Shown here piece by piece: positions 9,417 to 31,029 of a stretch of DNA of 43,805 nucleotides (positions are counted from its first letter, which is position 1; each line of letters begins with the position of its first letter). The translations under genes were made by a program, and so were the position numbers. The DNA is from Elusimicrobiota bacterium (GTDB taxonomy: Bacteria; Elusimicrobiota; Elusimicrobia; Elusimicrobiales; Elusimicrobiaceae): the NCBI GenBank assembly GCA_023393825.1, contig JAEXBW010000012.1, positions 1-43,805 on the forward strand. The letters run 5' to 3'. The notes below the pieces were generated by a model. The model made no database searches, was not told the origin of the DNA, and saw only the letters and a list, made by a program, of their open reading frames with translations.

Positions 9417-9553
9417 AAAAAACATCGCTGCGCCTCAGGGGTGCGCTTACGCACTTCTCATCCCTACGAAAGCCAAGCAGCTGGCTTTCTTTGCCGCCGC
9501 CAAATATAAATAAAAAACCGTCCTTGCGGGCGGTATATGTTTCAAATATGGCG
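9417..9553. repeat. Copy 2 (long form) of the hairpin / ATGGCG repeat family
   Basis: It begins AAAAACATCGCTGCGCC, contains the hairpin GAAAGCCA-AGCAGC-TGGCTTTC, and ends with the same 54-bp core as copy 1. Confidence 0.85.
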
Positions 9554-9655
9554 TTTTATGATTGTTCGCCTTCCGATAATTTTACTGACGTAAAATTTCT
9601 GCAGGCCGGGCTCGCGGTTTTTGCCTTTCGCCGCCAAACGTCCCGCGGCTCAAAC

Positions 9656-9804
9656 AAAAACATCGCTGCGCCTTTCTCATCCCGACGAAAGCCAAGCAGT
9701 TGGCTTTCTTTGACTCCGCCGCCAAATACAAATAAAAAACCGCCCTTGCGGGCGGTATATGTTTCAAATATGGCGGAGTGCCCAGGTAATGTAGCTGTAT
9801 GCTT
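9656..9804. repeat. Copy 3 (long form with right extension) of the hairpin / ATGGCGGAG repeat family
   Basis: Same left arm as copy 2. It contains TTGACTCCGCC (9711-9721), identical to the 3' acceptor end of tRNA-Asp. The core ends TGGCGGAGTGCCCAGGTAATGTAGCTGTATGCTT, as in copy 4. Confidence 0.85.
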
Positions 9805-9820
9805 ACCTTCCCCCCGTCTC

Positions 9821-9965
9821 AAATTCCCTAAAAAACAGGCAATTTACAGGGAAAATCGCATATTTTAGGCCATTTTAGCCGCTTCGTAACTATTTTTAAG
9901 CGAAATCTTCCTGTACAAATCTTTTGAGCTCAAAAAAATTCCCTGCGCAACTTAACAGGGAATTA
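9821..9965. repeat. Paired-hairpin module, locus A
   Basis: AAATTCCCT-N-AACAGGCAATTTACAGGGAAAAT at 9821-9856 and AATTCCCT-GCGCAACTTAAC-AGGGAATT (a perfect 8-bp stem) at 9937-9964. Homologous to 28361-28482. Confidence 0.7.
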
Positions 9966-9985
9966 AAAATAGATATCAGTGAAAA

Positions 9986-10117
9986 TTAACGAGCAGCTAA
10001 CTCTTTTTCTAGTTTTGTTATTTCAGCTTTACACCATTTTATACTGCATTGTAGTTGTTTTTCAGTCATCTCTGTTCTTTTAACCTTTCTGCCGCATATT
10101 CTGCAAGGGTTACTCAT
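9986..10117 (-). CDS. Possible 43-aa CxxC...CxxxC small protein
   Basis: Translation MSNPCRICGRKVKRTEMTEKQLQCSIKWCKAEITKLEKELAAR. AGGA lies about 10 nt upstream of the ATG. It is too short for the ORF track. Confidence 0.3.
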   Translation of the reverse strand: MSNPCRICGRKVKRTEMTEKQLQCSIKWCKAEITKLEKELAAR

Positions 10118-10461
10118 TTTTGTATCATCCTATGTTTTTGTGCTATCTTTTTCTTGGTGTTTTTTGTCAACTTGATCTTTCCCCATATTTAGGACAGTTG
10201 CCAGTTAGAGTGTTTTTGCCTTTGTTTTGTCCTTCTTTATTCTACATTATATAGTATTTATCTTAGCCGCGGTTTTCCTCTTTTCTTGCTCCATAAACTC
10301 TCTTGGCGTAATATTGTTTAAGCCTAAAATATATTACCTCTTTAGGCTTTACTCTATCTCTTATCTGTCCGTGTTTCGTTGAGCTAGTCATCATAATATC
10401 ATTATAAAATACTTTAATAGTTCATTTTTTCACCCAGGCACGACAAAAGAGGGATAGAAAT

Positions 10462-10507
10462 AGTTTCTAAAGAAACTGTTGACAAATAAACAATTTATTT
10501 GTATACT
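10462..10507 (+). promoter_or_regulatory. Sigma-70-like promoter with two perfect palindromes (candidate MarR operators)
   Basis: TTGACA at 10479-10484, a 17-nt spacer, and TATACT at 10502-10507. IR1 AGTTTCT-AA-AGAAACT (10462-10477) abuts the -35. IR2 CAAATAAA-CAA-TTTATTTG (10483-10501) fills the spacer. Confidence 0.7.
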
Positions 10508-10537
10508 ATTTAAAACTGATAGCAAAATGGAGGCGTT

Positions 10538-11008
10538 ATGGGTGATTTTGAAAGATATGGCATCTTGCCGCAAAAAGGCAGAAAGTACGAAAACATAATT
10601 TATGTTATGGCTTTAATTTACGGCCTTATTAATAAAGAGGTGGAAGAATACTTCCGCAAGTTCAATTTAACTTCATATAAGTTCAATATTTTAATGGTGG
10701 TCGGCTTTCAGAACGAAGGCAAAGGCATAAGCCAGGTGGAGATAGGCCGCCACTTAATTACAACCCCGGGCAATATAACTAAACTTGTGGAGGCTTTGTG
10801 TAAAGAAGAGCTTGTAACCCGCGTGCAAAACCCGGCCAGCCGCAGGGAGAATATAATAAAAATAACTCCCAAGGGCCGCAAACTTATAGATAAGTTGTGG
10901 CCTGAGTATGACGCACTGTTAAAAAGCAGGACAGATATTCTTCCTAAAGATAAGCAGGAAGAACTGGCAGAAATACTTAAAAACTGGTTTTTAGGTTTGC
11001 AGAAATAA
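10538..11008 (+). CDS. MarR-family transcriptional regulator
   Basis: Winged-HTH region ISQVEIGRHLITTPGNITKLVEALCKEELVTRVQNPASRRENIIKITPKGRKL. SD GGAGG at 10529-10533. Confidence 0.9.
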   Translation: MGDFERYGILPQKGRKYENIIYVMALIYGLINKEVEEYFRKFNLTSYKFNILMVVGFQNEGKGISQVEIGRHLITTPGNITKLVEALCKEELVTRVQNPASRRENIIKITPKGRKLIDKLWPEYDALLKSRTDILPKDKQEELAEILKNWFLGLQK

Positions 11009-11017
11009 GGAGACAAA

Positions 11018-14000
11018 ATGAACAGTATTATAAGAATCATATTTAAAAGATCTTTCTTATCATTATACATAGCGCAGTATCTGGGCGCGTTTAATGATAA
11101 CTTCTTCCGTACCGCCATGGCCACTTTTGTTACCTATGGAATGGTTACGATGTCCTCCCAGTACAAGACGGTGGTGGTATCTATGGCGGTCGGTTTGTTT
11201 ATGCTGCCCTTTTTCCTTTTTTCTGCGTTGGCTGGTGAGCTTGCCGATAAATACCGCAAGGATTTAATTGTAAAAGTAACTAAACTTATAGAGGTGATTA
11301 TAGCCGTTTTGGCCATTGCGGGTTTTATGTTGCAAAATATCCCCTTACTTTTATTTGTGCTTTTTCTTATGGGGACACAGGCCGCGTTTTTCGGGCCGAC
11401 AAAGTATAGCATCCTGCCCGATATTTTGGGCGAAGATGAACTTATAGCCGGCAATGCTTTGATTGAAGCGGGCACTTACGCCTCAATATTGCAGGGCACT
11501 ATTGTCGGCGGGTTGATATTCACACTGGGTATGCAATATGTCCCGCTTATCCTTTTGGGCGTTGCCCTTTTGGGTTTTATCTCCAGCTTGTTTATGCCCA
11601 AACAAAAACCCGCTTCCGCCGACCTTAAAATAAATAAAAACTTCCTTAAAACAACTTGGGATAATATGAAATTTGCCAAGCAGACAAGGGAAATCTTCCT
11701 TTGCATTTTGGGTATCTCATGGTTTTGGCTTTTAGGCGCGGCGCTTATCGGGCAAATGCCTGTTTTAAGCAAAGATCTTTTGCACGGCGACCAAAATGTT
11801 TTTACCTTTTTGCTTACATTATTTTCTGTGGGCATCGGGGTGGGCTCTATTGTCTGCCAGTTTTTGGTAAATGGCAAAATTACAAGCAAATACGTTCCGC
11901 TTAGCGCAATTTTAATGACGATGTTCTTGGTGGACCTTGCCTTTGCGGTTCATAATCTTTCTTTACCAGAAACGGTGCTGAGTATAAAGGGTCTTCTTGC
12001 TTCCTTCAGCGGTAAAAGAGTTGTGGCGGACCTTTTCTGCTTTGCGTTTTGCGGCGGGCTGTATATAGTGCCGCTTAACACTATGTTACAGCACTTGGGC
12101 GGGGAGGAGACACGCTCCCGCGTTATTGCCACAAATAATATCATCAATGCGCTTTTCATGGTTGCGGGCAGCGGAGTCTGTGCCCTATTCTTAACATGGG
12201 GCAAAAGTTTACCCTGGTTGTTCGGCTTTATTGCGGTAATTAATACCGTGGTTGCCGTTTACATAGTCGGGCTTTTGCCGCAGCATATCATCAGGATGAT
12301 TGCCAAGCGTATATTAAACTTTATTTACGAAGTAAAACTTACTGGCGAAGAAAATTGCAAAAACCTTAGCGGGAATGTTTTGGTAATCGCCAATCACACT
12401 TCTTTTTTGGATGCGGTTTTGCTGTGGGTATATATGCCCGAAGAGCTTTACTTTGCCGTGGATACTTTTGTTTCTAAAAAGTGGTGGGTTAAGCCGTTTC
12501 TGCACCTTGTAAAAAACTTCCCCATAGACCCTACCAACCCTATGGCTGTTAAAAGTATTATTGAGGAAGTTAAATCTGGCAAACGCGTGGCGATATTCCC
12601 CGAAGGCCGCATTACCACCACGGGCTCGCTTATGAAAGTGTACCCCGGCCCTGCTATGATTGCGGATAAAAGCGCGGCGCAGATATTGCCTGTTTATATA
12701 GAGGGCAGCCAGTATTCTTTATTTTCTCGTTTCGGGAACAGGTTTAAAACGCGCCCCCAAAGCAAAATAACAATAAATATTTTGCCGCTTACCGCGTTAA
12801 ACATACCCGAGGGAATTCAGGGCCGCACCCGCAGGGCCGCCGCCGCAAGACGCTTATACGAAATTATGTGCGAGATGAAATATCTCTCCAGCCCGCTTAA
12901 ACAGACTTTAATGGACTCTTTGCTTGACGCAAAGTCTTTAGTGGGCCGCAATAAGAAAATTATTGAAGATATTTCCAGAAAGCCTTTAAGTTTCGGACAG
13001 TTCTTAACGCTTATTTTTGCTTTGGGCAAACAATTTTCCAAGCAGAACAAACAGGGCGAATACGCGGGTTTTATGCTGCCAAATTCCATTGCCGCGGCCG
13101 GGGCCTTCTTCGGCCTTAGAACTTTTGGCATTACGCCCTGTATGCTTAACTTTTCAACAGGCGTCAAAAATATGCTTTCGTGCTGCCGCGCGGCGCAAAT
13201 AAAGAAAGTTTACAGTTCTAAACTCTTTATAAGTCAGGCGGGTTTGCAGGAAACTGTTGACGCTATGGTAAAAGAAGGGATAGAAATAATTTATCTTGAA
13301 GATATCAAAAAGCAAATATCTTTTGCAGATAAACTTATTGCCATGGCTGCCTCTTACTTTCCGCGCCGTTACTATAAAATGGTTCGCGGTAAAACCGCGC
13401 CTGAAGAAGCTGCCGTGGTGCTGTTTACCAGCGGCTCGGAAGGCACGCCCAAAGGCGTTGTGCTTAGCAACGAAAACGTTCAGGCTAACCGCTATCAGCT
13501 GCAAAGCGTTTTGGATTTCGGCCTTATGGATAATGTGTTTAACGCCATGCCTATATTCCATTCTTTCGGTCTTACGGGCGGGTTGCTGCTGCCATTACTT
13601 TCCGGCATAAAGGTGTTCTTTTATCCCTCGCCGCTTCATTACAGGATAATCCCAGATATGATTTACGACCGCAATGCAACGGTTATTTTCGGCACTGATA
13701 CATTTTTAAGCGGCTATGCCAAAACAGCCCACCCGTACGATTTTTACTCCGTACGTTTTGCCGTCGCAGGGGCTGAAAAACTTAAAGAAGAAACATACCG
13801 CAAATATACGGATACCTTTGGCGTGCGTATTTTGGAAGGTTACGGCGCGACTGAAACCGCGCCCGCAATATCCATCAACACGCCGATGCACTTTAAGCGC
13901 GGCACTGTAGGCAGGCTTTTACCGGGAATAGAGCCCAGGCTTGAGGCCGTTGCGGGGATGAACGAAGGCAAACGTCTTTTTGTAAAAGGCAAAAACATAA

Positions 14001-14419
14001 TGCTTGGTTATCTTAAGGAAGATAAACCGGGTGTAATACAACCGCCGCAGGATGGCTGGTACGACACGGGCGACATTGTGGATATAGACGAAGAAGGCTT
14101 TGTCGCAATAAAGGGCAGAGCAAAAAGATTTGCCAAGATAGCGGGCGAAATGGTTTCCCTAAGCGCAGTTGAGACTGCTTTAAATAAACTTTGGACGCAG
14201 GAAAGCCATGCAGTAATATCAATACCCGATGAACGTAAAGGCGAGCAGCTTGTGTTGTTTACCACGCGCAAAGAGGCGCAGTCGCAAGAAATCTCTGCTG
14301 CTTTCAGGGCACAGGGATTAAGCGAATTGTCTGTCCCCAAACAAATAAAGGTGTTGGAAGAAATACCTTTAATGGGCACGGGCAAAGTAGATTATGTTAA
14401 GTTAAAGGAGCTTATATGA
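11018..14419 (+). CDS. aas: Triple-fusion MFS (LplT-like) / 2-acyl-GPE acyltransferase / acyl-ACP synthetase (Aas-like)
   Basis: 1133 aa. N-terminus has about 12 TM segments of MFS type. PlsC motifs NHTSFLD (HX4D) and FPEGRIT. ANL motifs LFTSGSEGTPKGV, GYGATETAP and YDTGD...GRAKRFAKIAGEMVS. Confidence 0.9.
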   Translation: MNSIIRIIFKRSFLSLYIAQYLGAFNDNFFRTAMATFVTYGMVTMSSQYKTVVVSMAVGLFMLPFFLFSALAGELADKYRKDLIVKVTKLIEVIIAVLAIAGFMLQNIPLLLFVLFLMGTQAAFFGPTKYSILPDILGEDELIAGNALIEAGTYASILQGTIVGGLIFTLGMQYVPLILLGVALLGFISSLFMPKQKPASADLKINKNFLKTTWDNMKFAKQTREIFLCILGISWFWLLGAALIGQMPVLSKDLLHGDQNVFTFLLTLFSVGIGVGSIVCQFLVNGKITSKYVPLSAILMTMFLVDLAFAVHNLSLPETVLSIKGLLASFSGKRVVADLFCFAFCGGLYIVPLNTMLQHLGGEETRSRVIATNNIINALFMVAGSGVCALFLTWGKSLPWLFGFIAVINTVVAVYIVGLLPQHIIRMIAKRILNFIYEVKLTGEENCKNLSGNVLVIANHTSFLDAVLLWVYMPEELYFAVDTFVSKKWWVKPFLHLVKNFPIDPTNPMAVKSIIEEVKSGKRVAIFPEGRITTTGSLMKVYPGPAMIADKSAAQILPVYIEGSQYSLFSRFGNRFKTRPQSKITINILPLTALNIPEGIQGRTRRAAAARRLYEIMCEMKYLSSPLKQTLMDSLLDAKSLVGRNKKIIEDISRKPLSFGQFLTLIFALGKQFSKQNKQGEYAGFMLPNSIAAAGAFFGLRTFGITPCMLNFSTGVKNMLSCCRAAQIKKVYSSKLFISQAGLQETVDAMVKEGIEIIYLEDIKKQISFADKLIAMAASYFPRRYYKMVRGKTAPEEAAVVLFTSGSEGTPKGVVLSNENVQANRYQLQSVLDFGLMDNVFNAMPIFHSFGLTGGLLLPLLSGIKVFFYPSPLHYRIIPDMIYDRNATVIFGTDTFLSGYAKTAHPYDFYSVRFAVAGAEKLKEETYRKYTDTFGVRILEGYGATETAPAISINTPMHFKRGTVGRLLPGIEPRLEAVAGMNEGKRLFVKGKNIMLGYLKEDKPGVIQPPQDGWYDTGDIVDIDEEGFVAIKGRAKRFAKIAGEMVSLSAVETALNKLWTQESHAVISIPDERKGEQLVLFTTRKEAQSQEISAAFRAQGLSELSVPKQIKVLEEIPLMGTGKVDYVKLKELI

Positions 14420-15003
14420 AAAAAATAATGATAGCAGTTTGTCTATTAACGGCATTAACAGCCTGCAACGCCGGTCCGTCTGCAGCGGATAAAGATATTG
14501 CGATGTTGGCGGGCAAAGTATTGTTTATCAGAGATTATATAGAAACAAATAAAACGGCGACACCTTTAAGAGATGAAGAAGGGAACACCTCTTTTGAAAT
14601 AGGCAAACTTCCCTCCGCCACATCAGAAGGCTGTGAACAAAAGGAAACAACTTCATTTTGTAAAGGGTACATCGTGGAGGTTATTGATGATATTCGTCAA
14701 AACGGAGATAGAAAAGAAGACGGGACGATAGACCCCGCTACTATTCATTACCAAGGCTGTCTAAGGATAAGCGCTTTACAAAAAGATGAGGATGGCAAAT
14801 ATAACGGCATTGAATATACCACCTACATAACAGCCCCTTGGGATAAGCCTTTTTATGATACATGTTCTGCAAAAAAAATTGGCCCAAGCCGTAAGGCCTG
14901 TGAAAATTTGGGAGGGCGGCCTAATGGTATTTCCACATGGACAACGGTAGACTATGATGTTCCCGCAGATAAAGCGGCTCAAATTAAAAGAGTGGCAATA
15001 TAG
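14416..15003 (+). CDS. Lipoprotein, tandem paralog 1
   Basis: ATGA overlap with aas. Lipobox LTALTAC. Shares its N- and C-terminal blocks with the next ORF. Confidence 0.8.
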   Translation: MKKIMIAVCLLTALTACNAGPSAADKDIAMLAGKVLFIRDYIETNKTATPLRDEEGNTSFEIGKLPSATSEGCEQKETTSFCKGYIVEVIDDIRQNGDRKEDGTIDPATIHYQGCLRISALQKDEDGKYNGIEYTTYITAPWDKPFYDTCSAKKIGPSRKACENLGGRPNGISTWTTVDYDVPADKAAQIKRVAI

Positions 15004-15034
15004 TGAATAAAAGTTAATGAATAAAGGAGCTTAT

Positions 15035-15619
15035 ATGAAAAAAATAATTATGGCCATTGTTGTACTGACAACAGTAACAGCTTGTTCCGTGGGGGCATCT
15101 TCTGCGGACAAGGAAATAGCAATGCTTGCAGGGAAAGCATTATTTATCAGAGATTATATAAAAGCAAACAATGCGCTTAAAATTATTAAAGATGGAGAAT
15201 TTGCTTCTTTTCGCCTGATAAAGCCGCTTGTTATTACAGACCCTAACTGTAAAGACACTGGAGGGAAGATATTTTGTGACGGCTATTCGTTGGAATTTAT
15301 AAAGGATATGCGCCAAAATGCCGACAGGAAAAAAGATGGGCTTATAGACAGAAGCACCGCTGCCTACGAGGATTGTTTTAGAATAACCGCTTCAAAACAA
15401 GACAGAGACGGGAAATATCTTGGCCTTTCCTATACAACGTACATAACAGCAGATGGCGATAAGCCTTTTTATGATACATGTTCTGCAAAGAAAGTTGGCC
15501 AAAGCGGTAAAGCCTGTGAGAAGTTAGGCGGTCGTCTGAACGATGTTACCACATGGACAACGGTAGACTATGATGTTCCCGCAGATAAAGCCGCCCAAAT
15601 TAAAAGGGTAGCTATATAA
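15035..15619 (+). CDS. Lipoprotein, tandem paralog 2
   Basis: I prefer the ATG at 15035 over 15017. It has the same AAGGAGCTTAT-ATGAAAAAAATAAT context as paralog 1. Lipobox LTTVTAC. The C-terminal TWTTVDYDVPADKAAQIKRVAI is identical to paralog 1. Confidence 0.8.
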   Translation: MKKIIMAIVVLTTVTACSVGASSADKEIAMLAGKALFIRDYIKANNALKIIKDGEFASFRLIKPLVITDPNCKDTGGKIFCDGYSLEFIKDMRQNADRKKDGLIDRSTAAYEDCFRITASKQDRDGKYLGLSYTTYITADGDKPFYDTCSAKKVGQSGKACEKLGGRLNDVTTWTTVDYDVPADKAAQIKRVAI

Positions 15620-15678
15620 TAGGAAAAAACCAGAATTTATAAAGGTAATGCAGTAGATAAAAACAAAGAGGACAATTA

Positions 15679-16668
15679 ATGCTGAATATAAAAATAAAAT
15701 CAATCGGCACATATATACCTAAAACAACAGTGACCTCCGGAGAGTTGGAAAAAACACATAACATTCCTAAGGGCTGGATAGAAAAAAGTACCGGTATAAA
15801 AACGCGCCGCTATATAAATTTTGAAGATGAAAATATGATTACGGCGGGCGCGGGCGCGGCAAGAGAAGCTCTTAAAAATGCAAACTGTAAAATTGAAGAG
15901 GTGGATTGTATTATCTCGGCTTCCGCAAGCAAATACAGGCCTATCCCTTGCACTGCGTCTTTTATGCTTAAGGAATTATCCGGGGATAATCTGCCGATAG
16001 CTTGTTTTGACATAGATTCCACCTGTTTGAGTTTTGTGGTCGCATTGGATATGATGTCTTACGCCATAGCTGCGGGCAGATATAAAAATGTTTTGATAAT
16101 TTCCTCCGAATGCTGTTCCTGCGGTATTAACTGGAACCAAAAGGAAAGTGCAGCTTTAATCGGCGATGCCGCGGCAGCTGCCCTTATAAGCGCGGACGAT
16201 GCTTCTAAAATTCTATATGCAAAGATAGAAACTTTTACTAACGGAATTGAGTATGCCACTGTGCGCGGCGGCCTTATGATGCTAAATCCTTTGCAGTATA
16301 ACGGAGAAAATAAGGAAGACTACCTTTTTGATATGAACGGCAGGAGCATTTATAAAATTGCTTCTAATGTATTGCCGTCATTTATTAATCAGGCTTTTAC
16401 GGAAACGGGTTTGACTATGGACGACATCAAAATGTTTATCCCGCATCAGGCCAGCATGCTGTCTATGAAGTTAATGCAGCACAAACTGGGCATTCCCGAA
16501 GGAAAAATGAAGTATATTATTCAAGACTATGGCAATAGTGTTGCAGCTTCAATCCCCTTGGCCTTAAAAATAGCTATTGATGAAGGGGAAATAAAACGCG
16601 GCGATAAAGTAATGCTGCTTGGCACATCGGCGGGCCTTTCCGTAGGAGTGATGATACTTGAGTATTAA
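15679..16668 (+). CDS. FabH-like 3-oxoacyl-ACP synthase III family condensing enzyme
   Basis: Candidate Cys-His-Asn triad: DSTCLSF, PHQAS and YGNSVAAS. 329 aa, which is typical for KAS III. Confidence 0.85.
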   Translation: MLNIKIKSIGTYIPKTTVTSGELEKTHNIPKGWIEKSTGIKTRRYINFEDENMITAGAGAAREALKNANCKIEEVDCIISASASKYRPIPCTASFMLKELSGDNLPIACFDIDSTCLSFVVALDMMSYAIAAGRYKNVLIISSECCSCGINWNQKESAALIGDAAAAALISADDASKILYAKIETFTNGIEYATVRGGLMMLNPLQYNGENKEDYLFDMNGRSIYKIASNVLPSFINQAFTETGLTMDDIKMFIPHQASMLSMKLMQHKLGIPEGKMKYIIQDYGNSVAASIPLALKIAIDEGEIKRGDKVMLLGTSAGLSVGVMILEY

Positions 16669-17755
16669 AAGGATTTTATTTACAGGCGCCCGCTCTCCCG
16701 CGGTGTTAGCATCGGCAAGGACCATGGCCCGTTGCGGCTACACTGTCTTCGCTGCAGACAGTACAGATGCTAATCTATGTTTGTTTAGCAACAAAGTCAG
16801 CAAGTTTTTTAAATTACTGCCGACTAAGGATAAAAAATATAAAGAAACTTTAATCGGTATCGTAAAACGAGAGAAAATTGACTTAGTCATTCCCTCTTGT
16901 GAGGAGATTTTTTTCATATCTGCTTTTTTAGACGAATTGGGACAATATTGCAAAGTATTTTGCGACGAGCAAAGGAAATTACTCGCATTACATGATAAGT
17001 GGACTTTTTACAGATATCTGACAAGTAAAGGATTAAAAACTCCCAAGACAAATTTATCTTCCGCAATGCCGCGGCAAATGGATAAAAAATATATTATAAA
17101 ACCCCGATTTTCCCGCTTTGCGTCAAAGGTTATCTGTGCCTCCGAAATAGATAATAAAAGGCATAATGATTCATATATAGTTCAAGACTTTGTTAAAGGA
17201 CAGCAATATTGTTCTTACGCTCTGGTAGAAAACGGGAAAATTATTTCCCGCAGCACTTATATAACATTGCTTAACGCCGGCAGAGGCGCAGGGATTTTAT
17301 TAAAATATATTGAAGATAAAGAGATAACTGGAATTGAGGCTTTTATAGCCAAAGATTTTAATTTTACCGGTCAGTTGGCTTTTGATTTTATTAAAGATGA
17401 AAACGGGGATATATTTATTATCGAATGCAATCCCAGAATGACGAGCGGGTTGGTATTTATTGAGGATGCTTTTTTGCCCGTGGTATCAGGCGGTTGCAAT
17501 AAGTGTCGGGCAGGCGGATATCTTGCCTCGCTTCTACTGGCTGTTTTAATTTATATGCCTTTACAGTTGTTAAGAACCTTAAGGTGTGCAAGAGAGATTT
17601 GCTTTGCCAAAGACATAGTTTTTGACAGAACAGATTTAATGCCGTTTTTTATGCAGATACCAATAAGCTTATATTGGCTTATTAAGAGCATTTTTTACAG
17701 CGGGCCTACTGCGGCCTCTACAATAGATATTGAGTTTAATATGGAGAATAGATGA
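16658..17755 (+). CDS. ATP-grasp domain protein
   Basis: TTG start with AGGAG 9 nt upstream, and an 11-nt overlap with the KS gene. Motifs IIKPRFS, VQDFVKGQQYC and FIIECNPRMTSG. The C-terminal region is hydrophobic. Confidence 0.75.
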   Translation: MSIKRILFTGARSPAVLASARTMARCGYTVFAADSTDANLCLFSNKVSKFFKLLPTKDKKYKETLIGIVKREKIDLVIPSCEEIFFISAFLDELGQYCKVFCDEQRKLLALHDKWTFYRYLTSKGLKTPKTNLSSAMPRQMDKKYIIKPRFSRFASKVICASEIDNKRHNDSYIVQDFVKGQQYCSYALVENGKIISRSTYITLLNAGRGAGILLKYIEDKEITGIEAFIAKDFNFTGQLAFDFIKDENGDIFIIECNPRMTSGLVFIEDAFLPVVSGGCNKCRAGGYLASLLLAVLIYMPLQLLRTLRCAREICFAKDIVFDRTDLMPFFMQIPISLYWLIKSIFYSGPTAASTIDIEFNMENR

Positions 17756-18732
17756 AAATACTGGTCACAGGCGCGAGCGGATTTTTAGGGGGAAGGGCCG
17801 CTGTTATGCTTGCGGGAGAGGGGTATGAAGTTATCGCAAGCGGGCGTAATTTATCAAAAGCGCCAAAAGACAGCTCCGTTAAATTTATACCTGCGGATTT
17901 AAATAAAGAACTACCACCTGAGTTATTTGAAGGCGTGGACGCTGTTGTGCACGCGGCGGCCCTTTCAAGCCCATGGGGAAAATATGATGACTTTTACCTT
18001 GCCAATGTGTTTGGTACAAAGCAGCTTCTGGAGCAGGCTTTAAAGCATAAGGTAAAGAAATTTATATATATCTCTTCTCCCAGCATATACTTTGAGTTTA
18101 AAGACAAAGAAAATATTAAAGAAACGGAGCCTTTACCTTTTAAAAAAGCTAATTATTACGCCGAAACGAAATATCTTGCCGAACAGGAAGTATTACAGGC
18201 TGTAAAAAGGGGGCTTCCTGCGATTATTCTGCGTCCGCGCGCTATCTTCGGCACAGGAGACAATGCCCTTCTCCCCCGCGTTATAAAGGCAAATAATGAA
18301 AAATTTGTACCGCAAATGCGTACTGATAAAGGCCCGTTGTGCGATTTAACCTATGTAGACAATGTAGTATATGCAATAAAACTTGCGCTGAATTCAAAAG
18401 ACAGCTGCATAGGGCAAGCCTATAATATTACAAACGGAGAACCTGTTTATTTGTTGGAGATCATAAGGGAATTAGCAAAAGAATTAGGGTTTAAATATAA
18501 CGTCAGAAAAATACCATATTTTTTAGCTTTTAACTACGCGCGTATTTTGGAGTTTGCGTATAGTTTTATTTTAAAAAACAAAGAACCTGCTTTTACCAAA
18601 TACAGCATAGCTTTGCTATATAACAATCAAACGCTTGATATAACAAAAGCAAAAAAGGAACTGGGTTATTTGCCGTTGGTAGATATGAAAGAGGGCTTCA
18701 AAAGGACAATATCGGGATGGAATAATGATTAA
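17752..18732 (+). CDS. NAD(P)-dependent SDR (epimerase/dehydratase / 3-beta-HSD-like)
   Basis: ATGA overlap with the preceding gene. Rossmann motif VTGASGFLGG and catalytic YAETK (YxxxK). Confidence 0.85.
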   Translation: MKILVTGASGFLGGRAAVMLAGEGYEVIASGRNLSKAPKDSSVKFIPADLNKELPPELFEGVDAVVHAAALSSPWGKYDDFYLANVFGTKQLLEQALKHKVKKFIYISSPSIYFEFKDKENIKETEPLPFKKANYYAETKYLAEQEVLQAVKRGLPAIILRPRAIFGTGDNALLPRVIKANNEKFVPQMRTDKGPLCDLTYVDNVVYAIKLALNSKDSCIGQAYNITNGEPVYLLEIIRELAKELGFKYNVRKIPYFLAFNYARILEFAYSFILKNKEPAFTKYSIALLYNNQTLDITKAKKELGYLPLVDMKEGFKRTISGWNND

Positions 18733-19498
18733 AATTAAAGAGTTTTCATGCGGGTATTGCCGCCAGTTTGAAAAATTTGCTTTTAGTGGCGGAAAGTGGC
18801 GCATGAAGAAATTTCCCGCAAAATGTTTTTTGATTTCTGCGGACGGCGAGTATATTCTATTTGATACAGGATATCCCTCTGATTTCAATAATATTATGCG
18901 CGCCTGGCCCGATATCCTGTATAAATATTTAGTTCCCGTAAACATACGTAAGCAGGAAACGTGCGCAGAACAGTTACGGAAGGAAAATATCAGAACAGAG
19001 GACATAAAATATATTTTTATATCACATTTTCATGCCGACCACATAGGCGCGTTAAGAGATTTCCCCAACGCTCGTTTTGTATGCTCAGGTATAGAATATA
19101 ATAAGTTAAAAAATATGTCGGCTTTAAGACAAATTTTAAACGGTTTTGTTAGCAGATTTATTCCTGCGGATTTTGAAAGCAGAGTTATTTGTATTGAGCG
19201 GTTAAATATAAAAAAGGATAATATTTTTTCGTCTTGTTATGAGCTGCCTTTTATAAATGATATTTTTGCCGTACCTTTGCCCGGACATACGGCGGGACAA
19301 TTTGGATTGTGGCTGTCTACGGAAAAGATATTGCTTGCAGCCGACAGCGCTTGGATGAAAGAGAACTACACGCAGGCTTCTATGCCGCATGGAATTGCGC
19401 TTCGTTTTTGCGATGACAAAACATCCCTGCTTAAGACATTAACATTGTTAAAAAGTTTGAAAAATATAAAAATTTTCCTATCTCACGGAGAGAATTAG
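18725..19498 (+). CDS. MBL-fold metallo-hydrolase
   Basis: 8-nt overlap with the preceding gene. HxHxDH motif (SHFHADHIG) and a later PGHTAGQ. Confidence 0.85.
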   Translation: MIKIKEFSCGYCRQFEKFAFSGGKWRMKKFPAKCFLISADGEYILFDTGYPSDFNNIMRAWPDILYKYLVPVNIRKQETCAEQLRKENIRTEDIKYIFISHFHADHIGALRDFPNARFVCSGIEYNKLKNMSALRQILNGFVSRFIPADFESRVICIERLNIKKDNIFSSCYELPFINDIFAVPLPGHTAGQFGLWLSTEKILLAADSAWMKENYTQASMPHGIALRFCDDKTSLLKTLTLLKSLKNIKIFLSHGEN

Positions 19499-20782
19499 AT
19501 GTTTTATAAAATTATTATTTTATTTTATTATCTTAAAACAAAATATTTTCATAATTTTGCAAACAGGGCTGCATTGGAAAAATGGCAAGAGAATAAAATA
19601 AATAAAATCATTTTAAGGGTTATTGCCAAAAGTCAGTTTTACAACGGTTATATTAAAAACCCCTATTGCTCTCCGCTGTCGGGCCTGCCGCCGATTAATA
19701 AAACAGTAATGATGGATAATTTTGACGATTTTAATACGGCCCGCATTAAACTGGAGGAGGCTCTAAAGATTGCGGCAAAAGCGGAAGAAGATAGAAACTT
19801 CAGCCCGAAACTGGGTAAATACAGCGTTGGATTATCTTCCGGCACATCAGGCATACGCGGTGTGTTTTTAGTAAGTCCTTTTGAGCAGGCAAAATGGTGC
19901 GGAACAATTTTGGGTAAAATGTTGCCCTGTTCTATTTTCAGGAGGCAGAAAATAGCCTTTTTCCTTAGGGCGGATAATAATCTTTATGAGAGTATAAAAA
20001 GTAACAGCCTTAACTTTTGTTTTTTTGATTTAAAAAAAGATGTAAATGAGAATATTAAGAGGTTGGGAGAATTTCAACCGAATATTCTGGTTGCCCCGCC
20101 CAGCATGCTTAATCTTATAGCAGAGGCCCAACAAAGCGGAGATATAAATATTTATCCTTATAAAATAATCTCCGTAGCGGATGTTTTGTATGCAGATACC
20201 GCGGGAAAATTGGAGAGTGTATTTAAACAGAAAATACATCAAATATACCAAGCCACAGAGGGCCTTATCGCTTGCACCTGCAAATGCGGCAGACTTCATT
20301 TAAACGAAGATATTCTTTCTGTCAGAAAGAAGTATTTAGACAAACCTTCGGGCAGATTCATTCCGATTATTACGGATTTTAACCGGATTACACAGCCGAT
20401 AATTAATTATGAGTTAAATGATATTCTGGTAGAATCGACGGAAAAATGCCTGTGCGGAAGTGTTTTTACCGGTATAGAAAAAATAGAGGGCCGTTGTGAT
20501 GATATCTTGTATTACACGGATAACAAAGGGGTTAAGCATACCGTATTCCCTGATTTTATAATAAGAACAATATTAAAACATATTCCCAAAGCGGGCGATT
20601 TTCTTTTTGCCCAAACAGATATTAATACGGCTGTTTTGTTTTTGGAGACAAATGAATGTTCGGAAGGACTATTGCAGGCTTTAAAAGAAATTATTCCGAT
20701 AGAGATAACTGTTGAGGCGTTGCAGCGGCCCGCAAATTTATCCGTTAAGCGGAAACGGGTTGTCAGAAAATTTAATCCTTGA
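19499..20782 (+). CDS. PaaK / coenzyme-F390-synthetase-related adenylate-forming enzyme
   Basis: The start abuts the preceding stop (TAGATG). Motifs GLSSGTSGIRG, YQATEG, HLNEDI and IEGRCDDI. Confidence 0.8.
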   Translation: MFYKIIILFYYLKTKYFHNFANRAALEKWQENKINKIILRVIAKSQFYNGYIKNPYCSPLSGLPPINKTVMMDNFDDFNTARIKLEEALKIAAKAEEDRNFSPKLGKYSVGLSSGTSGIRGVFLVSPFEQAKWCGTILGKMLPCSIFRRQKIAFFLRADNNLYESIKSNSLNFCFFDLKKDVNENIKRLGEFQPNILVAPPSMLNLIAEAQQSGDINIYPYKIISVADVLYADTAGKLESVFKQKIHQIYQATEGLIACTCKCGRLHLNEDILSVRKKYLDKPSGRFIPIITDFNRITQPIINYELNDILVESTEKCLCGSVFTGIEKIEGRCDDILYYTDNKGVKHTVFPDFIIRTILKHIPKAGDFLFAQTDINTAVLFLETNECSEGLLQALKEIIPIEITVEALQRPANLSVKRKRVVRKFNP

Positions 20783-20783
20783 T

Positions 20784-20862
20784 AAAACTTATGACCCGCT
20801 CGGCTGCCGGCGCGGTGTGCGCAGGCCAATTAATATAACAGTATAATCATATTAATTTTTTA
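20784..20862. repeat. Copy B of the 79-bp intergenic repeat
   Basis: It starts 2 nt after the stop of the adenylating-enzyme gene and is nearly identical to 7707-7785. Confidence 0.9.
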
Positions 20863-21018
20863 CAATAGCAGTAATTGTTTTTAGGCAAATTTGAAATGTA
20901 TGTATAAGGTATATTTTAAAGAGTGAATATTGGCATAACCTTTTAATACTTGTTGTATAGTTATTTAATAGTATATATAATGAATAAATAAAAAAAATGT
21001 TTTATTGAGGAGATAATT

Positions 21019-21417
21019 ATGAATAAAAAGTTTATTATGTTTTCCGCAGTTTTGTCTGTGTTGTTTCTAACGGGATGTGTTGGAACAACTAAGACAATAA
21101 AAGATGGGGATAAGCTTACGGTTGCAAAAGTTCAAAGAGAGATAAAGGTTGGAATGTCTTCCTCTGATGTGGTAGAGGTACTGGGGACACCAAATATGGT
21201 TACGACCGATGATGCCCGCAGAGAAACATGGGTATACGACAGAATATCCACTCAAGTAGATTCTTCAGGTTCATCAAGTGGAGTGTGGCTTTTAATTGTT
21301 GGCGCAAGCGGCAATAAAAGCTCTACGACCTCATCTCAACGTACCCTTACCATTATTGTTAAATTTGATGAAAATAGTAAGGTGAGAGATTTTTCTTATA
21401 GGACTTCAAGCTTTTAA
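21019..21417 (+). CDS. Lipoprotein with a BamE/SmpA_OmlA-like domain
   Basis: Lipobox LTGC. KVGMSSSDVVEVLGTPN...ETWVYD resembles the BamE fold motif. A Ser-rich segment follows. SD GAGGAG upstream. Confidence 0.65.
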   Translation: MNKKFIMFSAVLSVLFLTGCVGTTKTIKDGDKLTVAKVQREIKVGMSSSDVVEVLGTPNMVTTDDARRETWVYDRISTQVDSSGSSSGVWLLIVGASGNKSSTTSSQRTLTIIVKFDENSKVRDFSYRTSSF

Positions 21418-21419
21418 TT

Positions 21420-21935
21420 ATGAGAAACTATATCATGATTATTTTGTTGGCGACATTCGCTATCGGCTGTTCCGCCAACTATAAGAACCTATATCTCCCA
21501 GACCAAAATTATTTGGCACGTAGAAACATAGAAACAAAGATGTTTGATACCGACAATGAAAAATCTATCATTGTAGCAAGTGCTCAGGTTCTTCAGGATA
21601 TGGGATACACAATAAAAGAATCTGAAGTTTCTCTAGGAATAATCACTGCCGAAAAGAATAGAGAAGCTGGCTCAACAGCAGGAAAAGTGGCAATTGTGTT
21701 TTTATCTGCTCTTGCGGGGACACAGCCGCAATATGAAGATACTCAGCGCTTCTATGTTAACATCGTTACTACCAAGATGGGTCATGGCGTAAAAACTAGA
21801 GTGTTATTTGCAAGGCGGTCTTGGGATAATTATGGAAGGTTATTGAAATTGGAAAAAATAGAGGATGAAGCGTTGTATAAAGATTTTTTTGAAAAATTGA
21901 GTCAATCTGTATTCTTGACAGCAAACGATTTGTGA
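21420..21935 (+). CDS. Lipoprotein, paralog of the next ORF
   Basis: Lipobox AIGC. Shares the blocks TKxFDT, QDMGYTI, LGxxT and the C-terminal QSVFLTANDL with 21945-22352. Confidence 0.7.
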   Translation: MRNYIMIILLATFAIGCSANYKNLYLPDQNYLARRNIETKMFDTDNEKSIIVASAQVLQDMGYTIKESEVSLGIITAEKNREAGSTAGKVAIVFLSALAGTQPQYEDTQRFYVNIVTTKMGHGVKTRVLFARRSWDNYGRLLKLEKIEDEALYKDFFEKLSQSVFLTANDL

Positions 21936-21944
21936 GGATAAGCA

Positions 21945-22352
21945 ATGAAAAAAATTATACTTTTAGCTTTATTTGCAGGTATTTTATGTGGCTGTGTAAG
22001 CGTAAATCAGCGGGCGTTAGATAGTGGGACATCTCAACTGGCAATGAGAAATTATCAAACAAAGTCATTTGACACTGCGGACAGCGACAATGTTATAAGG
22101 AATATAGTCTCTACAATGCAAGATCTTGGCTTTATAATAGATAAGGCAGATAAAGATTTAGGGACGGTAAGCGGATTTTCTTTTAATAGTAAAACAAATA
22201 TGACTGTTACTGTGCGTCAGAAAGGGAAACAGTGTCTAGTTAGGGCAAATGCCGAATATAACAATAAAGCAATAACAGAACCAGTTGCATACCAAAATTT
22301 CTTTAATGCGCTTGCTCAATCATTGTTTTTAACGGCAAATGATGTAATATAG
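21945..22352 (+). CDS. Lipoprotein, paralog of the previous ORF
   Basis: Lipobox LCGC. Shares the blocks TKSFDT, QDLGFII, LGTVS and the C-terminal QSLFLTANDVI. Confidence 0.7.
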   Translation: MKKIILLALFAGILCGCVSVNQRALDSGTSQLAMRNYQTKSFDTADSDNVIRNIVSTMQDLGFIIDKADKDLGTVSGFSFNSKTNMTVTVRQKGKQCLVRANAEYNNKAITEPVAYQNFFNALAQSLFLTANDVI

Positions 22353-22384
22353 TTTTTTAGTATTTCTACAGAATAATGTTGTTC

Positions 22385-22432
22385 AGCTTTCCATACCACA
22401 CCCTAAATGGGTATGTTATGGAAAGCTTTTTA
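22385..22432 (+). terminator. Rho-independent terminator of the lipoprotein operon
   Basis: An 11-bp stem AGCTTTCCATA / TATGGAAAGCT followed by TTTTTATT. Confidence 0.8.
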
Positions 22433-22473
22433 TTATTGATGTTAAGATAACGCAGATATGTCCACCAAAATGG

Positions 22474-22548
22474 CAAATAAAAAACCGCCCTTGCGGGCGG
22501 TATATGTTTCAAATATGGCGGGGTGCCCAGTTAATGCGCTGTATGCTT
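22474..22548. repeat. Copy 4 of the hairpin / ATGGCGG repeat family (with right extension)
   Basis: Sequence CAAATAAAAAACCGCCCTTGCGGGCGGTATATGTTTCAAATATGGCGGGGTGCCCAGTTAATGCGCTGTATGCTT. Confidence 0.85.
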
Positions 22549-22609
22549 GCTGTCAAGTTTTAGCGCATGCAGCAACGTGCACGCAGCGCAAATATAACCA
22601 ATAATGGTT

Positions 22610-22625
22610 TGGCATATCACTTGCA
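22610..22625 (+). promoter_or_regulatory. Sigma-54 (-24/-12) promoter-like element
   Basis: TGGCAT-ATCAC-TTGCA against the consensus TGGCAC-N5-TTGCW, with correct GG/GC spacing. It lies about 230 nt upstream of the autotransporter ATG. Confidence 0.4.
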
Positions 22626-22855
22626 AAAAGTACATAAAAATTACATTGATTTTATGGCTTTAATATGTCAAAATATCTATGTTCGTATGCCACAATGATT
22701 TATGGGAACTTGCCTGAACTCTTCGAGTTTGCGAAAACCTTAAATCCGTACAGTCTCAAATCTTTAAATAGCAGTACAATGTATCCCCTAAAAAATATGC
22801 TGTAAAGTTTTAAATCGACCAAACGGCCGATATATGTGTAATAAAAGGAAAATAA

Positions 22856-26929: not shown

Positions 26930-26947
26930 TGGTGGAGAAATAAAATT

Positions 26948-27478: not shown

Positions 27479-27500
27479 ATAAACCTTAACACACCAATAT

Positions 27501-27537: not shown

Positions 27538-27564
27538 ACTATCCGTGTAAACTGCAGGCGCAAG

Positions 27565-31012: not shown

Positions 31013-31029
31013 ACAAGACTCCAAAGTGT

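Follow-up and report, generated by a model that had tools for sequence, protein, structure and literature searches.

The five coupled genes found in the window (the whole 43,805-nucleotide Elusimicrobiota stretch that was analysed) are one copy of a real and widespread pathway that is so far uncharacterised. The core of this pathway consists of a KS III enzyme and a fixed block formed by an SDR, an MBL hydrolase and a PaaK-type, F390-like adenylating enzyme, with the position of the KS gene varying around the block. The most likely product, which we propose tentatively, is a fatty-acyl-derived lipid with a beta-hydroxyl.

The cassette and its surroundings in the window

The five open reading frames between positions 15679 and 20782 of the + strand are all intact (Table 1). 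Since their coordinates coincide exactly with those of the original prediction, the gene junctions are also as described there: overlaps of 11, 4 and 8 nt followed by a 0-nt gap. The ATP-grasp open reading frame starts with TTG and has a GGAG sequence 5' of the start, at 16645. The motifs that had been read from the letters (DSTCLSF, PHQAS, YGNSVAAS, ECNPR, GASGFLGG, YAETK, HFHADH, SSGTSGIRG and YQATEG) were each found in the translations, and the assignments to the KS, ATP-grasp, SDR, MBL and F390-like families were upheld by Pfam and NCBIfam profile matches. No acyl carrier protein is encoded among the cassette genes, an observation that speaks against a lipid product.

Table 1. Features of the cassette and its neighbourhood in the window
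Feature	Coordinates	Strand	Description
Best sigma-70-like promoter match	10479..10507	+	TTGACA-17-TATACT, 11/12; upstream of MarR gene
MarR-family regulator	10538..11008	+	Pfam MarR, HTH_27
LplT-Aas fusion	11018..14419	+	PRK06814, 1539 bits (cut-off 1349); MFS_1, Acyltransferase, AMP-binding
Lipoprotein paralogue 1	14416..15003	+	No Pfam/NCBIfam match; between Aas and KS
Lipoprotein paralogue 2	15017..15619	+	LPAM_1 lipobox model, 19.7 bits, sub-threshold (cut-off 20)
KS III	15679..16668	+	329 aa; ACP_syn_III 2e-19, ACP_syn_III_C 3e-27
ATP-grasp ligase	16658..17755	+	365 aa; ATP-grasp_3 4e-14
Extended SDR, 3-beta-HSD/OleD type	17752..18732	+	326 aa; Epimerase 3e-33, 3Beta_HSD 6e-32
Di-metal MBL hydrolase, lactonase-like	18725..19498	+	257 aa; Lactamase_B 2e-19
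PaaK-type adenylate-forming enzyme	19499..20782	+	427 aa; TIGR02304 'F390 synthetase-related protein'
First strong G+C-rich hairpin downstream of cassette	22484..22501	+	7-bp stem, 6 GC pairs

The best promoter match in the region 9800-23000 could mark where a MarR-Aas-lipoprotein-cassette transcript begins; it was scored against the consensus only, in a region that holds fewer such matches than shuffled sequence (30 vs 38). The hairpin downstream of the cassette is followed by a T-run only on the - strand and is therefore not a clear termination signal for the operon, which is read from the + strand. It also belongs to a 42-nt repeat with four copies in the window, where none would be expected by chance. 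The two lipoprotein paralogues share 61% identity, and paralogue 1 is missing from three other loci (L003, L088 and L086). The MarR protein is 50-51% identical to those found at the same position upstream of Aas in the related Elusimicrobiota loci L003 and L088.

The LplT-Aas fusion combines three domains, an MFS lysophospholipid transporter, a PlsC acyltransferase and an acyl-ACP synthetase. The proposal that the cassette is fed by the upstream Aas agrees with the gene adjacency in this Elusimicrobiota lineage and in one Alphaproteobacteria MAG, but not with what is seen elsewhere. Aas adjoins the cassette in only four of about 90 loci (the window, L003 and L088, with 68-69% identity, and L004, with 45% and a downstream location), which represent two distant lineages and differing positions. 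Aas is a lineage-specific neighbour outside the conserved cassette.

Distribution and variants of the cassette

A search of GTDB contigs, with one genome per species, produced at least 586 confirmed loci. In about 80 fetched loci, belonging to ten or more phyla, the genes recur mostly in the same order, and among complete genomes of E. coli about 12% carry a related form of the cassette. Because the same gene order is found in dozens of unrelated genomes, the arrangement is far beyond chance, and the co-conservation across phyla that had been set as a check on the original prediction is strong. Neither the literature nor curated names yielded a function or product for homologous cassettes, and the RefSeq names are generic, an outcome in favour of the original prediction.

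Among 83 clustered loci, MBL was present in 78, SDR in 75, KS in 74 and ATP-grasp in 62. When only well-flanked loci were considered, ATP-grasp was found in 57 of 68 and was missing in 10. This ligase is an optional accessory module outside the core; the idea of five genes forming a single cassette is right with regard to their co-conservation across phyla but not with regard to the ATP-grasp gene. A sixth gene of unknown family, G6, partners ATP-grasp in 41 of the 57 loci that carry the ligase. The window copy has ATP-grasp without G6, its usual partner, and so may not make the same end product as most relatives.

Other variants carry enzymes of lipid type. Of the 10 loci that lack ATP-grasp, 4 have a GT21 gene (ceramide-glucosyltransferase family) beside or within the cassette; none of the 57 loci with ATP-grasp does. 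In E. coli, which has its copy in a narI-tyrT island, and in Providencia, where ATP-grasp is likewise absent, PAP2, sterol-desaturase-family and acyl-CoA desaturase genes are translationally coupled to the core. Fusion proteins were also found, PAP2-F390 and MBL-F390. Taken together, GT21, the PAP2 and desaturase variants and the PAP2-F390 fusion point to a membrane lipid whose hydroxyl takes head groups. Neighbours elsewhere include MsbA-type ABC and EamA exporters, Rieske oxygenases and a CDP-alcohol phosphatidyltransferase; these, the adjacency of Aas in two lineages and the fatty-acid synthesis genes beside the core described below add to the lipid context. Brevibacillus loci have EamA exporters downstream and two-component systems upstream, cyanobacterial loci have ABC exporters inside them, and a conjugative Bacillus mycoides plasmid bears the cassette between IS elements. 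The exporters and two-component systems by some copies would also suit a secreted small molecule, against the lipid reading.

The enzymes and alternative readings

The catalytic residues were compared with those of 74-84 homologues from other loci. The Cys-His-Asn triad of the KS (C116/H256/N286) was kept in a proper alignment, with a conservation of at least 95%. The same level of conservation was observed for G7..G13 (GxxGxxG), S108, Y136 and K140 of the SDR; for H101, H103, D105, H106, H188, D207 and H254 of the MBL, which complete the metal-ligand set HxHxDH...H...D...H; and for the P-loop S113-G118, Y250-Q-x-T-E-G255, R332/D334/D335 and K417 of the F390-like enzyme. In this last protein, hardly any variation is seen in the P-loop, in the hinge GRxDD or at the C-terminal Lys417.

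The KS scored 394.5 bits against PRK07204 (cut-off 402) and failed the fabH model TIGR00747 (206 bits vs a cut-off of 292). Among solved structures, MxnB (2e-55) and CorB (7e-55) match it best and FabH (1e-49) comes next, while OleA is distant (about 1e-16). CorB/MxnB outscore FabH for 73 of the 74 cassette KSs. Judged by sequence, the KS falls into the PRK07204 / CorB-MxnB clade, whose pyrone synthases join chains, and does not group with FabH. The surroundings of the active Cys are similar (TCLSF vs SCLSF), and an insertion common to both is missing from FabH. The settings differ: CorB and MxnB act on carrier-bound beta-keto chains inside large trans-AT PKS/NRPS clusters (corallopyronin, myxopyronin), whereas the cassette has neither PKS nor carrier protein, and a pyrone or any head-to-head product would be hypothetical here.

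As KS III enzymes are initiation enzymes, the cassette could instead prime fatty acid synthesis. After processing by the MBL and SDR, the PaaK-type enzyme would turn an unusual acid into an acyl-CoA primer, and a primer-specific KS III would join it to malonyl-ACP, so that FAS II would make fatty acids with an unusual omega end. CoA thioesters of small or aryl acids are typical PaaK-family products. In addition, in an Erysipelotrichaceae MAG (L074) the arrangement PPTase-SDR-MBL-F390-KS runs directly into accB-accC-accDA-fabD-fabF, and in a Saccharibacteria MAG (L050) the block leads into a biotin-carrier gene before the contig ends, the same start as that of the fab-operon junction. We consider this reading unlikely, since such adjacency occurs in only 2 of about 90 loci, the KS fails the fabH model and has nearer relatives in CorB/MxnB than in FabH, and ATP-grasp, G6, GT21 and PAP2 would be left without a role.

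The Arg32 residue of the SDR suggests NADPH as cofactor. Its best curated family is OleD (2-alkyl-3-oxoalkanoate reductase), matched over the full length with 209 bits, well short of the cut-off of 580; the next is HpnA, with 116 bits. The best solved relative is NSDHL (6jkg, 9e-24). The substrate of OleD is a beta-keto acid, and NSDHL likewise acts on a beta-hydroxy/keto acid. Weaker matches include NAD_binding_4 (5e-20), the thioester-reductase domain TIGR01746 (1e-25) and the MxaA/AusA reductase domains.

The adenylating enzyme reached 475 bits against TIGR02304 (cut-off 252), confirming its place in the PaaK/F390 clade, and the curated families matched assign no function. The AF2 model (pLDDT 87.5) had as best folds BT_0428 acyl-CoA ligase, PaaK, NatL2, AjiA1, ClxA and HCL. 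The known products of PaaK and HCL are CoA thioesters. NatL2, AjiA1 and ClxA make esters or amides directly, their adenylates being captured by OH or NH2, and DdaG, whose family matched weakly (1.5e-3), pairs with the ATP-grasp ligase DdaF in dapdiamide synthesis. NatL2, AjiA1, ClxA and DdaG share the fold with the F390-like enzyme, with 14-18% identity in structural alignments, but they use aromatic or small acids and lie in secondary-metabolite clusters without KS, SDR or MBL partners. Long fatty acids are not the usual substrates of PaaK-type enzymes, which mostly take small or aromatic acids, and this counts against a lipid product. The nearest curated family of the ATP-grasp ligase is PRK06849, named 'hypothetical protein', and its AF2 model (pLDDT 90.7) had as best folds 2pn1, PylC and the L-amino-acid ligases RizA and BL00235.

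The original prediction saw analogues of Ole steps in these genes. In a strict form of this idea, the KS would generate a 2-alkyl-3-keto acid by head-to-head condensation, the SDR would reduce it, the F390-like enzyme would close a beta-lactone by way of the acyl-adenylate, the MBL would open or decarboxylate it, and ATP-grasp would add an amino acid. What holds is the likeness to OleABCD: a thiolase-fold condensing enzyme, a 3-beta-HSD-type SDR whose nearest family is OleD, an adenylate-forming enzyme and a hydrolase, with the three downstream enzymes as a fixed block and the condensing enzyme separable, as in OleBCD plus OleA. Non-decarboxylative chain joining by CorB/MxnB, the lactonase-like MBL and the presence among the structural matches of NatL2, which forms esters from adenylates, fit as well. 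However, all four tests of Ole membership failed: the KS is outside the OleA clade, the SDR is below the OleD cut-off, the adenylating enzyme is a PaaK-type TIGR02304 protein and not OleC, and an MBL takes the place of the alpha/beta-fold OleB. ATP-grasp is an extra. Beta-lactone closure by the F390-like enzyme would be pure analogy. The PaaK clade has no known beta-lactone synthetase, and if the lactonase hydrolysed the beta-lactone made by the ligase, the cycle would be futile. Furthermore, the head-group enzymes of the relatives (GT21, PAP2), which Ole clusters do not have, require a lipid that is stable and hydroxylated, and not an olefin or a reactive lactone. This pathway is therefore improbable.

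The best matches of the MBL are AHL lactonases (AttM family, 1e-20; PDB 9khq, 4e-11), all far under the family cut-offs; PqsE and glyoxalase II are not among the matches at E <= 1e-3. Trp210, conserved in at least 95% of homologues, presumably occupies the position of AiiA Tyr194, as placed by eye from the unaligned sequence. The resemblance to lactonases, not to known MBL thioesterases, is a point against the lipid reading.

In alkylquinolone synthesis, PqsA is an ANL ligase, PqsD a KS III and PqsE an MBL-fold thioesterase. By a parallel logic, the ligase would turn an acid into a CoA thioester, to which the KS III would add one extension. Reduction, release by the MBL as a thioesterase, amidation by ATP-grasp and export as a signal or antibiotic would follow. 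The KS has detectable homology to PqsD (1e-22), and the exporters and two-component systems of the Brevibacillus and cyanobacterial loci and the IS-flanked plasmid copy would be suitable for such a product. We give this reading little chance, because the MBL is lactonase-like and not PqsE-like, no receptor gene is consistently linked, and a lipid is favoured by the membrane-embedded partners (GT21, the PAP2 fusion, di-iron desaturase and hydroxylase). The cassette also differs from Pqs in its ANL clade, in having SDR and ATP-grasp and in not having PqsBC, PqsH or anthranilate genes. Least probable of all is a Lux-like route, where the MBL frees an acid (cf. LuxD), the F390-like enzyme, of the same ANL branch as LuxE, adenylates it, and the SDR reduces it to an aldehyde or alcohol for decoration by head-group enzymes: the thioester-reductase matches of the SDR and the need of GT21 and PAP2 for a lipid alcohol as acceptor fit it, but the OleD/3-beta-HSD matches are much stronger (209 vs 90 bits), a carrier domain is absent and the KS has no role.

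A possible route to a beta-hydroxy lipid

For the preferred product, the beta-hydroxy lipid, we infer a series of steps and their order from family resemblance only. The KS would carry out a Claisen condensation of one acyl thioester with another, or with a malonyl thioester. The resulting acyl thioester would have a beta-keto group, and possibly an alpha branch, and the OleD/3-beta-HSD-type SDR would reduce the keto group with NADPH. The lactonase-like MBL would then cut a thioester or ester and release the acid. The PaaK-type enzyme would adenylate a carboxylate, either to pass the product on in the form of an ester, an amide or a CoA thioester, as the chemistry of PaaK-fold relatives would allow, or to load the starter. 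In the window version, ATP-grasp may join a carboxylate to an amine. A similar enzyme logic is known from the mycolate system FadD32/Pks13/CmrA, in which adenylation, Claisen condensation of two fatty chains and beta-keto reduction lead to an alpha-alkyl beta-hydroxy acid to which a head group is attached. In contrast to that system, the cassette lacks a carboxylase and a carrier domain, and there are no family-level homologues between the two.

In other genomes, the core is combined with differing enzymes for attaching or tailoring lipid head groups. The cassette of this organism and its relatives lies behind MarR-Aas, which could supply acyl-ACP from scavenged fatty acids.

The cassette in the window and its setting

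Five consecutive ORFs encoding a KS III, an ATP-grasp protein, an extended SDR, an MBL protein and an F390-like adenylating enzyme were found in the window (table). Their junctions, overlaps of 11, 4 and 8 nt followed by a gap of 0 nt, match those of the original prediction, which had described a five-gene cassette with an Ole/beta-lactone-like logic, and all the motifs quoted there were found in the translations. The ATP-grasp gene starts with TTG, with GGAG ahead of it, and this start agrees with the N-termini of the homologues. On the same strand, 5′ of the cassette, lie a MarR gene, a gene for a three-domain LplT-Aas fusion, which is canonical (PRK06814, 1539 bits), and, between the Aas and KS genes, two lipoprotein genes. 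The latter are tandem paralogues that are 61% identical and have conserved cysteines; they belong to no known Pfam or NCBIfam family, and none were found in the related loci. The top promoter-like site in 9800-23000 is located 5′ of the MarR gene and there is no strong terminator-like hairpin before 22484, where the T-run of the first one is on the − strand only. A single long transcript from the MarR gene through the cassette is therefore possible. Across the cassette the G+C content drops from about 45% to 36-40%.

Several other features of the window were recorded. A 42-nt element, in which a constant tail accompanies a G+C-rich hairpin (ACCGCCCTTGCGGGCGGT), is present in four copies, while none are expected by chance. 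Two of the copies lie within a tandem duplication and the set flanks the MarR-to-lipoprotein block on both sides; the element looks like a REP-type repeat. Directly 3′ of the cassette, beyond an AT-rich gap of 236 nt, a BamE-like lipoprotein gene is accompanied by two small predicted lipoprotein genes without known family, none of which were found in the loci L003, L004 and L086-L088. Farther along are a gene for an autotransporter, an OmpA-family lipoprotein gene and, adjoining a tRNA-Asp gene, a stretch of low G+C content that resembles a small mobile or defence island. The gene coding for an RDD membrane domain joined to ankyrin repeats represents a pairing unusual for a bacterium, and the adenylosuccinate lyase is nearest to those of Elusimicrobiota MAGs (65-67% identity), followed by those of Elusimicrobium species (60-61%).

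Coordinates of the features discussed in the text
Feature	Location	Coordinates	Strand	Family or description
RDD-ankyrin protein gene	window	7974-8708		N-terminal RDD domain, C-terminal ankyrin repeats
42-nt element, four copies	window	8751-8792, 9512-9553, 9734-9775, 22479-22520		Candidate REP-type repeat
Tandem duplication, ~220 bp	window	9450-9775		Holds two copies of the 42-nt element
LplT-Aas fusion gene	window	11018-14419	+	PRK06814
Lipoprotein paralogue genes	window	14416-15003, 15017-15619	+	
KS III	window	15679-16668	+	Pfam ACP_syn_III + ACP_syn_III_C
ATP-grasp	window	16658-17755	+	Pfam ATP-grasp_3
SDR	window	17752-18732	+	Pfam, extended, Epimerase/3Beta_HSD type
MBL	window	18725-19498	+	Pfam Lactamase_B
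F390-like adenylating enzyme	window	19499-20782	+	TIGR02304
BamE-like and two small lipoprotein genes	window	21019-22352		
Autotransporter and OmpA-family lipoprotein genes	window	22856-27478		1357-aa protein with autotransporter beta-domain and long Asn/Thr/Ser/Gly-rich passenger; then OmpA-family lipoprotein
Low G+C stretch (33-35%)	window	27500-32764		PD-(D/E)XK nuclease (PDDEXK_4), WYL/WCX/HTH regulator, 338-aa ORF without family
tRNA-Asp	window	32687-32764	−	
Adenylosuccinate lyase	window	36655-38031		
G6	L003	11272-12402		
G6	L086	7773-8903		
G6	L090	9329-10474		
B12-binding radical SAM gene	L086	8928-10214		
Seven-gene E. coli relative (L089/L091)	NZ_CP016497.1	1473450-1480331		

Co-conservation and variation of the cassette

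The main test proposed for the cassette was its co-conservation across phyla. Of 8000 candidates scored in a sequence search with the F390-like protein, 3532 had E <= 1e-5, and an exhaustive HMMER scan at E <= 1e-30 yielded 476 clusters at 50% identity. A separate scan, with one genome per GTDB species, gave at least 586 confirmed loci. The five window proteins were mapped onto the best 80 of these loci and all ORFs found there were clustered. The same genes recur, mostly in the same order, in at least 10 phyla. Among 83 loci with an F390-like gene, the MBL is present in 78, the SDR in 75, the KS in 74 and the ATP-grasp in 62, and the window, where the KS, SDR, MBL and TIGR02304 genes are neighbours that share a strand, has the gene order found in most of them. 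The order SDR-MBL-F390 was constant wherever it was mapped in the best loci compared. The KS gene is mostly first, and it is located 3′ of the F390-like gene in six loci (L050, L052, L056, L074, L075 and L078), on the opposite strand in one of them. The taxa with the cassette include Elusimicrobiota, Alpha- and Gammaproteobacteria, Cyanobacteria, Sericytochromatia, Actinomycetota, Saccharibacteria, Victivallaceae, Bacteriovoracaceae, Bacteroidota, Campylobacterota and, within Bacillota, Paenibacillus, Brevibacillus, Metabacillus, the B. cereus group, Clostridia and Erysipelotrichaceae. One copy lies between IS elements on a conjugative B. mycoides plasmid. Of 5426 complete E. coli genomes, 674 (about 12%) have a seven-gene relative, located between narI and tyrTV; its overlapping genes code for KS, SDR, MBL, F390-related enzyme, PAP2, a sterol-desaturase family protein and an acyl-CoA desaturase, and the Providencia locus L081 is of the same type. 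This cross-phylum co-conservation indicates that the cassette is real and is either ancient or highly mobile.

Most loci include an additional gene, named G6, that is translationally coupled 3′ of the F390-like gene in 47 loci and remains beside the ATP-grasp gene where the order is rearranged (L075, L079). G6 codes for an uncharacterised family of about 380 amino acids (376-386) with ~30 invariant residues, for which no Pfam, NCBIfam or PDB match was found, even when a 37-sequence profile was used. In 68 well-flanked loci, ATP-grasp and G6 occur together in 41, ATP-grasp without G6 in 16, and neither in nine. From this pattern of occurrence, the ATP-grasp is an optional module of the cassette. 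A tblastn search did not find G6 anywhere in the window, though the nearest relatives of the cassette (L086/L087) and of the organism (L003/L088) carry it. The cassettes of L086 and L087, 61-73% identical to that of the window, have the order KS-ATP-grasp-SDR-MBL-F390-G6 followed by a B12-binding radical SAM gene and are without Aas. Those of the Elusimicrobiota loci L003 and L088 are 47-56% identical and have the same order through G6, preceded by MarR and Aas; the L088 cassette is near MurB and PGM, as is that of the window. Since the window Aas is nearest to Elusimicrobiota copies (68-69% identity) and the cassette is nearer to the Aas-less L086/L087, the locus looks mosaic, which suggests that the cassette was replaced in place. 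The radical SAM gene, which in L086 is directly 3′ of G6 and is absent from the window, may provide a further tailoring step.

Loci that lack the ATP-grasp have other accessory genes, such as the PAP2 and desaturase genes of E. coli and Providencia. A gene for GT21, the ceramide-glucosyltransferase family, adjoins the cassette or is part of it in L014, L016, L039 and L056, i.e., in 4 of 10 loci without ATP-grasp versus none of 57 with it. Rieske oxygenase genes are neighbours in two cyanobacteria, in Flavivirga and in Sulfuricurvum. Genes for a CDP-alcohol phosphatidyltransferase, for a classical SDR and for exporters of the MsbA-type ABC or EamA kind are also among the neighbours. Natural fusions of PAP2_3 with an F390-related enzyme (P0362, 642 aa) and of MBL with an F390-related enzyme (P0492, 705 aa) show a physical link of the F390-related enzyme with the MBL and with a phosphatase or phosphotransferase of the membrane. 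In an Erysipelotrichaceae MAG (L074), PPTase-SDR-MBL-F390-KS runs into accB-accC-accDA-fabD-fabF, and in a Saccharibacteria MAG (L050), SDR-MBL-F390-KS is followed by a biotin-carrier gene and then by the contig end. The cassette could conceivably prime fatty acid synthesis with an unusual starter, but we consider this improbable. An acyl carrier protein was sought in and near the cassettes and none was found, and a PPTase is present in one locus (L074). There was no support for the idea that the KSs encoded 3′ of the F390-like gene near fab operons are housekeeping FabH enzymes, as their scores versus CorB/MxnB and versus FabH are about equal (the difference ranging from −1 to +59 bits).

Placement of the individual enzymes

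The KS nearly reaches the cut-off of its best NCBIfam model (PRK07204, 394.5 bits versus 402) and is well below that of the housekeeping FabH (TIGR00747, 206 bits versus 292). Among solved structures it is nearest to MxnB (2e-55) and CorB (7e-55), then to Aquifex FabH (1e-49) and PqsD (1e-22), while Xanthomonas OleA structures (3row, 3s21, 4ktm and others) match at about 1e-15 to 1e-16. The KS is consequently placed nearest CorB/MxnB and outside the OleA clade. MxnB and CorB are KS III enzymes that join two chains, forming the alpha-pyrone of myxopyronin and corallopyronin. In the alignment the Cys-His-Asn triad is in register (C116/H256/N286), as had been proposed from the motifs, and the KS shares with CorB the type of its TCLSF motif and contains an insertion absent from FabH. 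All but one of 74 cassette KSs score higher versus CorB/MxnB than versus FabH (L078, −1 bits); the margin is 15 bits for the window KS and reaches a maximum of 82 bits. Residue conservation was assessed across 74-84 homologues from other loci with a threshold of at least 95%, which the triad satisfies, as do the glycine motif, Ser108, Tyr136, Lys140 and Arg32 of the SDR. OleD is the top curated family for the SDR (NF042422/NF042423, 208.7/197.5 bits over the full length, below the cut-off of 580), followed by HpnA (116 bits), and its best solved relative is NSDHL. The substrates of OleD and NSDHL are beta-keto or beta-hydroxy acids.

In the MBL, His101, His103, Asp105, His106, His188, Asp207 and His254 are conserved, so that the set of metal ligands is complete. 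Trp210, which we take to occupy the position of AiiA Tyr194, is conserved as well. The protein is most like the AHL lactonases but lies outside the AiiA/AttM/AhlS families, since its best score, 73.9 bits versus AttM (cut-off 390), is far from the curated cut-offs of 375-475 bits. A role in defence or anti-defence was rejected, because the weak Anti-Pycsar_Apyc1 matches reflect the general MBL fold and the context is biosynthetic. Catabolism of a lactone by a lactonase, a CoA ligase, a dehydrogenase and a thiolase was judged unlikely because the condensing enzyme has Cys-His-Asn and the thiolase triad is Cys-His-Cys.

The F390-like enzyme is a member of TIGR02304 (475 bits versus a cut-off of 251.9, model positions 3-428 of 430) with conserved P-loop, YQxTEG and GRxDD motifs and C-terminal Lys417. 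Its predicted structure (pLDDT 87.5) matches the PaaK family, including BT_0428, PaaK1/2, NatL2, AjiA1, ClxA and 2-hydroxyisobutyryl-CoA ligase, a fold that supports CoA ligation as well as direct ester or amide formation. The ATP-grasp protein exceeds the Pfam ATP-grasp_3 cut-off (53.6 versus 23.2 bits), and its top family, below the cut-off, is PRK06849 (266.9 versus 406 bits), named "hypothetical protein" in NCBIfam release 20. K148, E256, N258 and R260 show no variation across 25 homologues. The nearest structures to its model (pLDDT 90.7) are 2pn1, PylC and L-amino-acid ligases, which would fit an enzyme that joins a carboxylate and an amine. Both models are confident folds with generic neighbours only, and the substrates were not identified by them.

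These placements bear on the Ole analogy, of which the architecture stood and the membership in OleABCD did not. The fixed SDR-hydrolase-ANL block, the separable condensing enzyme and the OleD-like SDR are Ole-like, and the KS clade is known for non-decarboxylative joining. However, the long-form PF00501 ANL enzyme expected of OleC is absent, the cassette enzyme being a TIGR02304 protein of PaaK fold (20.6 bits versus PF00501, cut-off 29.9), and no alpha/beta hydrolase equivalent to OleB was found in 10.5-22.5 kb, where the hydrolase is of MBL fold. A strict Ole-like route is unlikely; a lactone synthetase and a lactonase working together would form a futile cycle. A secreted molecule made in a Pqs-like manner has an equally small chance: the KS matches PqsD, at an E-value far above those for CorB/MxnB, and no PqsE-type MBL was found, PqsE being absent from the MBL matches at E <= 1e-3. 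Least probable is a Lux-like reduction of an acid, as thioester reductases match the SDR more weakly than OleD and 3Beta_HSD do.

Candidate product and significance

The partners that are embedded in the membrane or transfer head groups, i.e., GT21, PAP2 (including its F390 fusion), the CDP-alcohol transferase, Aas, and the desaturase and hydroxylase genes of di-iron type, and likewise the adjacency to fab operons, favour a lipid that bears a free hydroxyl over a soluble metabolite. The simplest scheme, to which we give somewhat less than an even chance, has five steps, each of which we infer. Condensation by the KS would generate a beta-keto acyl thioester, possibly alpha-branched, that the OleD-type SDR would reduce to the beta-hydroxy form. 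The MBL would then cleave the thioester or an ester, the PaaK-type enzyme would adenylate a carboxylate for onward ligation and, in the window version, the ATP-grasp would form an amide. This pathway logic, thiolase-fold condensation, beta-keto reduction and adenylation, is of a known kind.

A broader and rather speculative proposal is that the core KS-SDR-MBL-F390 builds an unrecognised class of bacterial lipid anchors with interchangeable, lineage-specific head groups. The anchor would be hydroxylated, possibly alpha-branched, and mycolate- or ceramide-like, and it would be made by KS III Claisen condensation in place of a PLP-dependent or PKS route. The head groups could be added as an amide through ATP-grasp and G6, as a sugar through GT21 or as a phospho-group through PAP2 or the CDP-alcohol transferase. 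If this proposal is true, the pathway would span at least 10 phyla and would be present both in Elusimicrobiota of the gut and in ~12% of the complete genomes of E. coli.

No paper on the cassette was found in the full-text literature, but subscription journals were mostly outside the coverage and a prior characterisation is possible. RefSeq (2026) gives the cassette genes generic names only, also in E. coli. There is a real chance that the product belongs to a new lipid class. A cassette of four to seven genes without an assigned product is conserved in at least 10 phyla, and its function is open to direct testing through the copies in E. coli and Bacillus. If a membrane lipid is made, the cassette would represent a new lipid-anchor pathway, would give first functions to TIGR02304, PRK06849 and the G6 family, and could be relevant to properties of the envelope in uropathogenic E. 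coli and in commensals of the gut.
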